Virus record (IMG/VR): IMGVR_UViG_3300032047_002388 | Location: 1 to 64,000 of that record | Length of the DNA stretch: 64,000 nucleotides | DNA from: a virus | Strand: one strand, 5' to 3' | Part shown: positions 27,209 to 30,740 of the stretch, piece by piece | Numbering within the stretch: position 1 is the first letter of the stretch | How the letters are laid out: each line of letters begins with the position of its first letter | Translations under genes and position numbers: made by a program | The notes under the pieces: generated by a model | What the model saw: only the letters and a program-made list of their open reading frames with translations | What the model was told of the DNA's origin: nothing | Databases searched by the model: none

Positions 27209-27502
27209 ATGCCCAAATGGGAGTTAACGACAGTACCCCAAGTACCCCTACTGAGAGGAAGAGAATACACCACGCTGAGGTTGTTTTTGATTCTTTCGTG
27301 TGAAATTATACTACACCATAATAGTTAACCCCTCTAACCCCTTGTAAATGAGGTGCTTGGAGGTTTCCACTACCCCCAAATGAGTAGTTAGTTGCACAAT
27401 AGAGTGGTATCATAATGATTTTATGATATACTTTCCCATAATGATAGAGGAGGACTAGGTATAGCATTATTATTAGGAGCCTCAAGCGTATGTGTCCAGA
27501 GG

Positions 27503-27745
27503 TGACATGCTGTCATGTGCTTGGTTGTGATATATTACCCCCCATTTGCATATGTCCAGTAATAGGGGATTTCCTTACAAAGATGACAATTCCACGCTTT
27601 TCAGACATATTGTCATGTTTTTTATTTGGATATATGAGCTTTTTTTCGTATCTTAGCTCGGAGGCGTGTGTCTTTGCCTGCTTAATAATAATGACTGTTA
27701 CAATTGTGTCATATGTTACATTTGTAAACAGGTGACATATTGTCA
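27503..27745. repeat. three TGACA-N3-TGTCA-type palindromes
   Basis: TGACATGCTGTCA 27503, AGACATATTGTCA 27603, TGACATATTGTCA 27733. Confidence 0.75.
27626..27658 (+). promoter_or_regulatory. early-type promoter
   Basis: TTG-N20-TATCTTAGCT. Confidence 0.5.
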
Positions 27746-27812
27746 TAGTTCTATCTCTAGGGGGGTATAGTCTAATAAGCATCACGCTATTCTGTGATTT
27801 ATTACTTGTATC

Positions 27813-27880
27813 CGCAAAATAATTGCAAAAAAAGTGTAAAAAAGTTTGGAAGTCTCAGGAATTATTCGTATATTAGCTAT
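27813..27880 (+). promoter_or_regulatory. conserved early-type promoter repeat
   Basis: GCAAAATAATT...TTGGAAGTCTC...TATATTAGCTAT. Confidence 0.75.
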
Positions 27881-28069
27881 GTATTGTGATTGAGACGTTA
27901 CTCTAACAATACTGTTCTTTGAAAATATAGCGGTATAAGTCCTTATAGGAAATGAAAGATACTCGGGCAATCGCACTCTGAATGAGACCATTCTCTCCTA
28001 TTCCCACACGGGAAGACAACAAAGTAAAACCAATTTCACCAGCAGTTCCTCATTCCTGCTGGTTTTTTT
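27881..28069 (+). ncRNA. putative ~190-nt structured non-coding RNA
   Basis: bounded by a promoter and a terminator, no credible ORF, several hairpins. Confidence 0.5.
28038..28069 (+). terminator. intrinsic terminator
   Basis: ACCAGCAG / CTGCTGGT followed by a T run. Confidence 0.8.
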
Positions 28070-28091
28070 ATGCAGAAAAGCGTGCAATTGT

Positions 28092-28123
28092 TTGGATTTG
28101 TCATTTATTATTTGTATATTAGC
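28092..28123 (+). promoter_or_regulatory. early-type promoter
   Basis: TTG-N20-TATATTAGC. Confidence 0.6.
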
Positions 28124-28128
28124 CCTGT

Positions 28129-28335
28129 ATGATGAGAGTTAAAAAAACAATTTCGGTAACATTAATCTTATTAGGTGTAGTACTAGTAGTATCAGCCCTA
28201 CCCCTAGCGATTAAGTTTTTCTTTAGAATTTTCCAACTATTCCTACTATATCCCCTTGAAGGATTATGCATGACAGGACTACTTCTAGTATTCCAATTCT
28301 TGTATATTAAGATAGTAGAGGGAGAAGAGGGGTAA
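28129..28335 (+). CDS. small two-TM membrane protein
   Basis: hydrophobic 68-aa ORF directly after a promoter. Confidence 0.55.
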   Translation: MMRVKKTISVTLILLGVVLVVSALPLAIKFFFRIFQLFLLYPLEGLCMTGLLLVFQFLYIKIVEGEEG

Positions 28336-28538
28336 GCCACCCTTCGAGGTTTCTTGCTACTGCAGGCAATTGACATTGGACAGAGGGGCCCGGATACGTT
28401 TTTGGGCAGAGGTTAGCTTTTCTCCCTATGGAAAAAACACCTTAATCACCCCTATGGGGTTGCAGTATCTGTCAAAGTGGTTTGGTATCGAGTTGTGAGT
28501 CAAGGAGTTAAGAACTTCACGCTCTACTCTCTTTTTTT
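28333..28538 (+). ncRNA. putative pseudoknotted structured RNA
   Basis: GC-enriched, multiple complementary segments, ends in a hairpin plus T7. Confidence 0.45.
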
Positions 28539-28546
28539 AATTGTCT

Positions 28547-28639
28547 ATGAATTATAAATTTATTAGGTTTATACTGTGTGTATGTATAGTATGGACTTTT
28601 GTATTTTGGTTTTCTTTGTATGTATTACTAGTAGGGTAA
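28547..28639 (+). CDS. 30-aa hydrophobic peptide
   Basis: MNYKFIRFILCVCIVWTFVFWFSLYVLLVG. Confidence 0.35.
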   Translation: MNYKFIRFILCVCIVWTFVFWFSLYVLLVG

Positions 28640-28703: not shown

Positions 28704-28901
28704 ATGGAAGGTAAACACACAACAGTAGCTTATAAGCTTAAAAGAAGTAGAAAGGTAAAAGTAGAGGTTTTCCCATATCATGTGGATAGAATCAACAATT
28801 CCAGGTCTACCAAACCTATAATCCCCCACGATGCAGAGATTCTCTCTATGGGAGTAGGTGAGGGTTTCCTTGAAGTCTACAAAAAAAAGTATAAAGTTTA
28901 G
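28704..28901 (+). CDS. hypothetical protein
   Basis: 65-aa ORF. Confidence 0.6.
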   Translation: MEGKHTTVAYKLKRSRKVKVEVFPYHVDRINNSRSTKPIIPHDAEILSMGVGEGFLEVYKKKYKV

Positions 28902-28902
28902 G

Positions 28903-28968
28903 TAAAATAATTGGGTTTTTATTTGGAGCTTTGAGCTATTTTTCGTATATTAGCTATGTAAGATTGAG
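28903..28968 (+). promoter_or_regulatory. conserved early-type promoter repeat (TTGGAGCTTT allele)
   Basis: TTGGAGCTTT...TATATTAGCTATGTAAGATTGAG. Confidence 0.8.
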
Positions 28969-29644: not shown

Positions 29645-29718
29645 GGCCGAGTAGCTCAATTGGATAGAGCAATAGCCTTCTAAGCTATCGGTTGAAGGTT
29701 CGAGTCCTTCCTCGGTCA
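29645..29718 (+). tRNA. tRNA-Arg(TCT)
   Basis: GGCCGAG/CTCGGTC acceptor, ATAGC-CTTCTAA-GCTAT anticodon arm, GGTTCGAGTCC T arm; CCA not encoded. Confidence 0.95.
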
Positions 29719-29745
29719 CAAAATTACTATAAAAATCATTATGGT

Positions 29746-29783: not shown

Positions 29784-30740
29784 ATGATTAGAACCGCAGA
29801 ATTCGTATCACCCTCACATCCAGATAAAATGTGTGATAGAATTTCGGATGCTCTACTAGATTTGTGTTTGGAACAAGACCCAAACTCAAGATGTGCAATC
29901 GAAACTATGGGTGGCAACCAAAAAATCTTCATTACAGGCGAGGTAACAACTGAAGCAAAACTTACAGATGGAGATATCAAACGAGTAGTTAAACAAATTA
30001 CTAACATAGATGATGTAATTATTCATCTAAACACACAATCACCAGAGATTGCTCAAGGAGTTGATACTGGTGGTGCAGGAGACCAAGGAATAATGATTGG
30101 CTATGCTTGTGATGAGAATCAGGAGTATGTTCCCCAAGAGTATTTTTTGGCTAGAAATCTTAATAGATACCTATATGCCAACTACAGGTCAGATGGAAAA
30201 ACCCAAGTTACTATGAATGGTAACTCATTAAGGGTTGTTGCTTCGTTCTGTGGAGCACCGACTGAACAGTTAGAGAAGAAAACAACTAAATTTTTCTCTC
30301 AATTTCCCCAATATCACATTGAAGCATTACATTGTAATCCCGCAGGTGATTGGGATATCGGTGGATTTACTGCCGATGCAGGGTTGACTGGTAGAAAACT
30401 GGCCGTAGATAACTATGGACCAAGAGTTCCACTAGGTGGTGGAGCCTTTAGTGGGAAGGATGCTACCAAAGTTGACAGGTCAGCAGCCTATATGGCGAGG
30501 AGAATCGCAGTAGATATCCTAAAAGAGAAGGGTGCAAAGGAGGTATATGTACAACTTGCATACGCAATTGGGTACGACCAACCTCTTCAAGCCACTGCTA
30601 TCGTAGATGGTGAACACCAATTCGTAAAAGGATATGATTTATCACCAAAAGGAATTATAGATTTCCTTAAATTACAAGAACCAATTTATGAAAGAACAGC
30701 AAATTTCGGACACTTCGGAAATGGATTCGAGTGGAGATAA
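29784..30740 (+). CDS. metK: S-adenosylmethionine synthetase
   Basis: HPDKMCD, GAGDQG, DGKTQ, DAGLTGRK, GGGAFSGKD. Confidence 0.95.
   Translation: MIRTAEFVSPSHPDKMCDRISDALLDLCLEQDPNSRCAIETMGGNQKIFITGEVTTEAKLTDGDIKRVVKQITNIDDVIIHLNTQSPEIAQGVDTGGAGDQGIMIGYACDENQEYVPQEYFLARNLNRYLYANYRSDGKTQVTMNGNSLRVVASFCGAPTEQLEKKTTKFFSQFPQYHIEALHCNPAGDWDIGGFTADAGLTGRKLAVDNYGPRVPLGGGAFSGKDATKVDRSAAYMARRIAVDILKEKGAKEVYVQLAYAIGYDQPLQATAIVDGEHQFVKGYDLSPKGIIDFLKLQEPIYERTANFGHFGNGFEWR

Follow-up and report, generated by a model that had tools for sequence, protein, structure and literature searches.

A narrowly distributed GC-rich non-coding element, probably a plus-strand structured RNA, next to a small hydrophobic gene of uncultured marine phages

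The first 64,000 nucleotides (nt) of the virus record IMGVR_UViG_3300032047_002388, the stretch of DNA analysed here and called the window, contain a non-coding element of approximately 124 nt, the core, which directly follows an open reading frame (ORF) for a hydrophobic protein of 68 amino acids (aa). The complete record has 128,139 bases and a CheckV completeness of 67%. Its mean GC content is 31.8% (0.318; standard deviation, sd, 0.051), and all large ORFs are on the + strand. The core sits in a 3-kb stretch of small ORFs within the tRNA region of this phage family, with a gene for a 248-aa protein (end 26610) on one side and tRNA-Arg (29645–29719) followed by the S-adenosylmethionine (SAM) synthetase gene (at 29784) on the other. 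The features listed in Table 1 form a cassette in the order ORF-less unit, early promoter, probably leaderless gene for the 68-aa putative membrane protein, core, variable hairpin with a U-rich run and a gene for a second small putative membrane protein. This cassette belongs to a small clade of uncultured marine phages. The non-coding element is real but smaller and simpler than described in an earlier sequence-only reading, which had seen a compact RNA closed by an outer stem and locked by a 7-bp pseudoknot.

Table 1. Features in and around the conserved core (positions in the window; cells are alignment cells)
Feature	Position	Strand	Basis or detail
Upstream ORF-less unit, ~190 nt	27878..28070	+	own promoter box (27865-77) and clean terminator
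Phage early-type promoter: TTTGGA (28091-97) and box TTTGTATATTAGC (28111-23)	28091..28123	+	motif count, relatives
Gene for 68-aa hydrophobic two-segment small protein	28129..28335	+	translation, family alignment
Conserved GC-rich core, ~124 nt	28338..28461	+	nhmmer and covariance-model matches in 12 loci
Hairpin H1, ACCY-N4-RGGT	28339..28350	+	83% of cells paired; inner pair U-A, U-G or unpaired
Invariant hairpin H2: TGC/GCA with loop TACTGCAG, or CTTGC/GCAGG with loop TACT; holds palindrome CTGCAG	28353..28369	+	alignment A4, columns 13-32 invariant
Three-way junction: AGGG/CCCT (28384-87/28424-27), GCCCGG/TTGGGC (28388-93/28402-07), 5-bp helix (28408-12/28419-23)	28384..28427	+	100%, 100% and 97% of cells paired
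Two invariant U-runs	28400-03, 28418-21	+	A4, columns 65-68 and 83-86
Invariant single-stranded GGAAAAAACA	28430..28439	+	A4, columns 95-104
3′ hairpin H5, ACCCC-TAT-GGGGT	28448..28460	+	TACACC/GGTGTA or CATCAT/ATGATG in relatives
Non-conserved 3′ segment with the 3′ strands of pseudoknot, TTGACA/TGTCAA and outer stem	28461..28484	+	unalignable in 7/8 relatives' rows, partly deleted in L009
Variable hairpin GAG..GTGAG / CTTCAC..CTC (28490-28524), then 7 nt, then seven T (28532-38)	28490..28538	+	folds
30-aa hydrophobic ORF	28547..28639	+	frame listed from TTG 28541

The base composition of the core differs clearly from that of the surrounding genome. At 28313–28432 the GC content reaches 0.517, which is approximately 4 sd above the mean and the second highest value of all 120-nt segments in the 128-kb record. 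The highest peak (76544–76663, GC 0.667; L109 945–1064) was rejected as an RNA candidate, since it codes for a run of approximately 20 prolines in a large ORF. Immediately before this poly-proline run, likewise outside the window, there is a second ORF rich in Pro and Gly.

Direct sequence comparison returned no homolog of the element, neither by blastn in a setting for distant matches against 50,697 phage records nor by searching viral and metagenome contigs with exact 18-nt and 28-nt patterns from the window. Loci collected via the SAM synthetase gene (L002–L004) and the 248-aa gene (L005) likewise showed no similarity to it by nhmmer, blastn or a covariance model (R1). By protein search, 50 relatives at 58–97% identity were found for a 65-aa gene located further downstream (28704–28901), and four for the 68-aa ORF. 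Using the alignment of the 65-aa family (A2), we fetched 53 related loci, 2 of them viral and 51 from metagenomes. The element was detected by nhmmer in 12 of these loci (L006 and L008–L018), in all of which the 65-aa protein shows 89–95% identity. L006 and L011 are one contig of 62,020 bases present in two collections, and the 12 loci comprise only six distinct core sequences. The remaining 41 loci lack the element: 33 of them have at least 900 nt upstream of the 65-aa gene, while eight are too short in this direction to be judged, including L030, which starts just 3′ of the place where the core would be expected.

With the covariance model R1, no additional copy was detected in the 41 loci without the element, in the remaining sequence of the window, in the complete record or in three further viral records. 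In 4 and subsequently 151 sampled genomes of one phylum, centred on one labelled uncultured Bacteroidetes, there was no match at E ≤ 0.1, a result that as a sample does not prove absence. Two pattern searches yielded candidates that were rejected. The 17-mer TTCTTGCTACTGCAGGC had 45 matches in 596 billion bases of prokaryotic sequence, compared with approximately 69 expected by chance, and none of them extends past the seed. The pattern AGAGGGGCCCGGA-N5-9-TTGGGC identified one extra locus among viral contigs (L108), where it lies inside a coding region and is not matched by R1.

Homology between the loci spans positions ~28338–28461 and then stops; on the 3′ side of the core, only L009 can still be aligned with the window. 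In the alignment of the core (A4), 84 of 130 columns are invariant and occur in blocks of 20, 13, 8, 11 and 16 nt. Variable positions are found only in a 14-nt linker, in the loop of GCCCGG/TTGGGC, in the 3′ tail and in three columns belonging to the helix after that loop. The core is a genuine island of both composition and conservation. One rival reading is that the core codes for protein, either as part of the 68-aa ORF extended by read-through or frameshifting, or as a small ORF by itself, and one frame is indeed open through the core in nine of nine rows and in phase with the upstream stop codon in seven of them. However, the upstream ORF is in a different phase in the two other rows, the window and L009, so that none of the frames keeps one phase with it throughout, and the open frame has no start codon before 28370. 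All five residues encoded by the linker differ between the lineages. Among 20 variable columns, 9, 9 and 2 fall on the third position in the three frames, so that third positions are not enriched, and the invariant runs of 11–20 nt leave no synonymous variation, while the neighbouring genes vary. Read-through, frameshift and bypass readings of the 68-aa ORF were rejected by this frame analysis, and we regard a coding function of the core as scarcely credible.

Local base pairing was evaluated with a model of six helices, namely H1, H2, the junction stem AGGG/CCCT, GCCCGG/TTGGGC, the 5-bp helix and H5. Under this model 93.5% of the cells are paired, compared with 29–56% when the helices are slid. 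The inner hairpins and the three-way junction proposed by the sequence-only reading thus persist in the relatives, with the register of H1 one base off the CCT/AGG given there. The two registers of H2 are indistinguishable, because columns 13–32 of A4 are invariant. In the three-way junction, two one-sided changes keep pairing; the 5-bp helix shows one compensatory exchange from A-U to U-A (columns 73/88) and an A·A mismatch in L009. The loop of GCCCGG/TTGGGC (columns 60–64) varies, and its stem is invariant. In H5 two pairs are changed on both sides, with one C-U mismatch in rows reading TACCCC/GGTGTA, bringing the number of pairs with changes on both sides to three for the local helices in total. 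Between GTTTTT (28398–403) and AAAAAC (28433–38), a perfect helix of 6 bp can form in the window, and only 4–6 bp in the relatives. The invariance of the A6 run and the U-runs would be compatible with a small pseudoknot or with base triples.

Two observations bear on the strand. GCCCGG/TTGGGC and the 5-bp helix together have 11 pairs, 5 of which are G·U in most sequences and would be A·C on the other strand. For the core, the minimum free energy of folding has a z-score of −1.07 (+ strand) and −0.13 (− strand), with values of −1.07, −1.37 and −1.32 for three + strand homologs; for the larger segment 28325–28545 it is −0.42 (+ strand) and −0.08 (− strand). The G·U pairs and the asymmetry in folding energy point to the + strand. 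An element conserved as a DNA duplex, such as a protein binding site, an origin-associated element or a recombination site, would agree with a conservation that consists mostly of invariance with little covariation, with the unremarkable thermodynamic stability and with the 6-bp palindromes CTGCAG and GGGCCC in invariant blocks. It would not explain why H5 is kept despite full replacement of its sequence (ACCCC/GGGGT, ACACC/GGTGT, CATCAT/ATGATG), why the G·U-rich helices exist on the + strand only, why a loop varies over an invariant stem, or why the element is invariably located within a transcription unit, directly at the stop codon of a gene in the same orientation. A signal at the DNA level is therefore improbable in our judgement.

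The long-range architecture of the sequence-only reading did not withstand comparison with the relatives. All its pairings are present in the window: the outer stem TAAGCCAC (28333–40) / GTGGTTTG (28477–84) with 8 bp, two of them G·U, the pseudoknot between the loop TACTGCA (28358–64) and TGCAGTA (28461–67) with seven perfect base pairs, TTGACA (28370–75) / TGTCAA (28470–75), AGGG/CCCT, GCCCGG/TTGGGC, AGAGG/TTTCT, ACCCC-TAT-GGGGT (28448–60) and the seven T (28532–38). The long-range helices among them, however, are not conserved and occur at chance level. In an alignment extended in the 3′ direction (A3; nine rows, eight distinct, 177 columns), standard pairs occupy 61% of the cells of the outer stem, 39% of the pseudoknot and 42% of TTGACA/TGTCAA. 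Together these three helices are paired in 48.2% of cells, compared with 37–48% in controls in which the 3′ partners were moved by 1–3 columns. Five of the seven pairs of the pseudoknot form in only one or two of the eight distinct sequences and the other two in all eight. In dinucleotide-preserving shuffles of 28333–28484 (n = 300), a perfect 7-bp complement arose in 150 cases, and at least four 6-bp complements, the number observed, in 62.

The 3′ strands of these helices are absent or changed without compensation in all eight rows of relatives. L009 is the sole relative sharing the 3′ region; it has lost the 3′ strand of the outer stem by deletion, reads TTTCAT for TTGACA with no compensating change, and has CACTGTA for TGCAGTA. 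All other relatives have AT-rich sequence in place of the entire 3′ region. Additionally, a metatranscriptome contig (run X19) carries a natural insertion of 10 nt, CAGTATCTGT, after 28462 in the region of the 3′ strands, which is a tandem duplication of the adjoining bases. The loop TACTGCA itself does not vary among the homologs, and inspection of the alignments of the relatives by eye revealed no other sequence with which it might pair. With the long-range helices unsupported, the 'compact' closed architecture falls. No ribozyme family matches either, leaving the proposed new ribozyme without support. A compact RNA locked by the 7-bp pseudoknot and acting as a new ribozyme or pseudoknotted riboswitch is thus highly unlikely.

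In agreement with the view that the element belongs to no recognised class, a search of the core in Rfam 15 gave no match to RNase P, tmRNA, SAM, preQ1 or self-cleaving ribozymes. At gathering score, only two tRNAs were found in the whole window. At E ≤ 10, queries of 801, 3201 and 141 nt around the element and the homolog from L010 returned no + strand match on the core. A weak alignment to manA-II (19.6 bits, against a gathering score of 100) falls at 28007–28069, on the terminator of the ORF-less unit and off the element.

The 68-aa gene and the RNA core are one module. By tblastn the 68-aa ORF was placed in exactly the 12 loci that carry the core, and in the window as well as in the relatives its stop codon lies 0–4 nt before H1. 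In the alignment of the 68-aa family (A5), 14 residues are invariant and the protein of the window is 29–33% identical to those of the distant group; no Pfam or PHROG family was matched by the protein.

This gene is preceded by a promoter-like box that recurs in the genome. At up to one mismatch, the motif TTNGTATATTAGC occurs 15 times in the window (12 times on the + strand), compared with 0.5 expected; the phage-specific form of the box is TTYGTATATTAGC, with sites including 17238, 27865, 28111, 28942, 29245, 35367 and 52960. TTTGGA is found approximately 12 nt upstream of the box at the sites inspected (28111 and its counterparts in relatives), and the same box precedes the 68-aa ORF in eight of eight relatives examined. 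The box contains TATATTAG, which matches five of the six near-invariant positions of the Bacteroidota −7 element TANNTTTG. For promoters of this phylum, the published description gives the consensus TTTG/TANNTTTG and a transcription start 4–5 nt past the box (PMC6847099). The host may be a member of the Bacteroidota, because the promoter type resembles the Bacteroidota −33/−7 type. By the same comparison transcription would start near 28127, which would therefore place the ATG of the 68-aa gene (28129) almost at the 5′ end of the message; the gene is probably leaderless. The boxes nearest to the core are the one ahead of the 68-aa ORF (28111) and that at 28942, and the core has none of its own. 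A scan of the window with the motif found no − strand promoter box near the element.

The ORF-less unit in front of this promoter was matched by nhmmer in the 12 core-bearing loci and no others. Its constant presence next to the small hydrophobic ORF raises the possibility of a module resembling type I toxin–antitoxin systems, with the 68-aa protein as toxin and the 3′ element controlling the mRNA through fold-back or processing or serving as antisense target. The ORF of 68–69 aa, small and hydrophobic with conserved, apparently membrane-like segments, would suit a toxin, and ORF and RNA element co-occur in 12 of 12 loci. Nevertheless, 68 aa is long for a type I toxin, there is the lack of a − strand promoter box near the element, and complementarity is at chance. 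Between the ORF-less unit and the mRNA, the longest Watson–Crick run is 9 nt, which was equalled by 58 of 200 shuffles, and the pairing of the mRNA 5′ end with the core was equalled by 62 of 300. We consider a toxin–antitoxin function very unlikely.

Part of the stretch is present in six metatranscriptome runs, and the core is apparently transcribed. The contigs of all four runs examined cover 28156–28404, 28252–28393, 28156–28481 and 28148–28367 with 0–2 differences. They bridge the 68-aa ORF and the core, and 27929–28055 of the ORF-less unit is also covered. One contig spans the entire core uncut (28156–28481), an observation that does not decide for or against cleavage. In the four runs, 27400–27804 is free of contigs and cover is thinner after 28481; such gaps prove nothing.

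A transcript of this kind could also give rise to a trans-acting or stable small RNA (sRNA), cut from or outlasting the 68-aa message as do RNAs derived from 3′ untranslated regions (UTRs), and acting on targets of the host or the phage or sponging a protein. Its position in the tRNA region, beside an always co-occurring ORF-less unit with promoter and terminator, would suit such a function, as would the long invariant single-stranded runs, which lend themselves to base pairing or protein binding, and the hairpin and U-run that follow the core in the window and L009. On the other hand, the core lacks a promoter box of its own (nearest at 28111 and 28942), and six of the eight distinct relatives have no U-tract terminator, so that transcription should continue into the next ORF. 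No complementary run of at least 11 nt beyond chance was found between the core and the remainder of the 128-kb record (two matches of 11 nt), and its pairing with the neighbouring ORF-less unit was not above that of shuffles. We regard an sRNA as unlikely, though less so than a signal at the DNA level.

Between the core and the next ATG, a hairpin of lineage-specific sequence is present in seven of seven sequences folded and lies 17–24 nt before the ATG. The terminator-like hairpin followed by seven T of the sequence-only reading is confined to the window and L009; the other relatives carry a different hairpin and a short U/A-rich run. In the window the T-run begins 7 nt past the stem; the relatives have only UUU before an A/U-rich run. 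Hairpin and T-run are possibly a weak terminator or an expression platform.

In the window and L009, a hydrophobic ORF of 30 aa follows, nearly identical between the two. The counterparts of the other relatives are 61 or 76 aa long, and the 30-aa ORF aligns with their C-terminal part, which gives it the look of a small membrane protein in a shortened or variant version. Additional ORFs lie between the element and the 65-aa gene in L009 (~1990–2500) and in L015–L018 (~2250–2500). By eye, the cysteine pattern of one of the extra ORFs of L009 is suggestive of a Kazal-type inhibitor domain, and an ORF common to L009 and L015–L018 begins with IDLHGF, in which it faintly resembles Smr domains. Beside the 65-aa gene, the tRNA complement varies among the loci L006–L054 and comprises Cys, Leu-Arg-Met-Cys, Ala-Glu or, as in the window, Arg. 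These differences mark a plastic region of tRNA and small genes.

Altogether, the core is rather likely to be a functional RNA element of the + strand. It would consist of two small 5′ hairpins, the three-way junction, an invariant A6 facing the two invariant U-runs and a 3′ hairpin. Its likeliest role, put forward tentatively, is that of a cis-acting intercistronic leader or attenuator. Located between two small membrane-protein genes, the core would act on its own transcript, and its sequence-constrained part might bind something or sense ribosomes terminating at the abutting stop codon. A terminating ribosome would melt H1, because the stop codon of the 68-aa gene is always within 4 nt of it, and might in this way couple the fold to translation. 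Through the variable hairpin, the core could then set the level of transcription or translation into the downstream gene. Of the three roles named by the sequence-only reading, an attenuator for the downstream peptide would be the most plausible. Structured phage non-coding RNA, the third of them, is a fair generic label for a conserved, GC-rich and apparently transcribed non-coding element. The proposal as a whole, an uncatalogued + strand structured RNA core that is part of a cassette and acts in cis, is a serious possibility that falls somewhat short of probable.

Several results weigh against this proposal. When the window or L009 is compared with the other lineages, nucleotide identity over the entire core is 79–85% and does not exceed the 82–91% of the well-conserved 65-aa gene; it is thus the island pattern together with the invariant runs that makes the case, with no global excess of conservation. 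With six distinct cores, covariation is weak: its score was reached by 37 of 500 column shuffles and the number of compensatory pairs by 96 of 500. RNAalifold prefers a shifted register that is in equally good agreement with the invariant columns, numerous other G/U-rich helices could form, such as the invariant 8-bp GGUUUCUU/GAGGGGCC, and the folding energy is unexceptional (z of approximately −1.1 to −1.4). The terminator scan did not call the hairpin at 28490–28538, which is not a canonical intrinsic terminator, and the search for a conserved competing helix or antiterminator pairing found none. Finally, contigs from RNA libraries show neither strand nor ends and may include DNA carry-over.

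A more specific idea goes beyond these data. The core might represent a new class of sensing RNA, in which the A6 run is clamped between the U-runs as a U·A-U triplex or pseudoknot beside the junction, responds to a small molecule or to terminating ribosomes and gates early small membrane proteins in hosts of the Bacteroidota type, which do without Shine–Dalgarno sequences. We offer this as speculation that is more probably wrong than right by a wide measure.

If the core is a functional RNA, it would be one more uncatalogued structured RNA in the early or tRNA region of large uncultured marine phages. With approximately 124 nt, it would provide a compact test case for the tuning of expression on leaderless messages without Shine–Dalgarno sequences, the hosts probably being Bacteroidota. 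It is an element of narrow range, for which comparative support is weak, and the practical outcome of our analysis is mostly corrective: the pseudoknot is due to chance, and the real unit is a cassette of promoter, small ORF and RNA.

Among known systems, several share features with this cassette. A likeness to preQ1-I and to further small riboswitches that form an H-type pseudoknot and have an A-rich 3′ tail, which we take as a lead only, lies in the short G-rich hairpin followed by the invariant A6 and in U-runs that could give A-minor or base-triple contacts. The Rfam models of these classes, however, did not match the 141-nt query at E ≤ 10, and the loop-to-tail pairing that such a pseudoknot needs comprises only 4–6 bp and is not preserved in full. 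Cis-acting antitermination RNAs are known from phage HK022 as put sites. Like these, the core would be a hairpin-rich RNA a few hundred nt past an early promoter, lies before terminator-like structures and shows strong sequence constraint. The host polymerase would be of a different type, if the host is indeed one of the Bacteroidota. The tRNA region of phage T4 encodes small stable RNAs. With these and with 3′UTR-derived sRNAs the core has in common that it is located in a tRNA region, beside an ORF-less unit, and forms the 3′ end of a short message; unlike them, it has no terminator of its own in most relatives, and no target complementarity was found.

Leaders and riboswitches usually combine a conserved core with a platform downstream that varies, and a conserved core upstream of a variable platform is what we found here. 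The likeness to riboswitch and attenuator leaders, intercistronic ones among them, extends to the variable spacer, to the varying hairpin and U-rich run before the start codon and to an invariant junction and invariant single-stranded nucleotides with variable loops. Differences are that the core abuts a stop codon and not a promoter, that a conserved antiterminator was not found and that the terminator is non-canonical. The manA, wcaG, PhotoRC and IMES motifs are orphan structured RNAs of marine phages and metagenomes. No Rfam model matches our core, and with 12 loci and six distinct cores its range is very narrow compared with the orphan motifs represented there. Like them, it is a GC-rich, conserved island of several hairpins in an AT-rich uncultured marine phage and is present in ocean RNA libraries. 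Thus, with novelty judged from Rfam and sequence searches, the element is best filed as a narrowly distributed addition to the orphan structured RNAs of uncultured marine phages.

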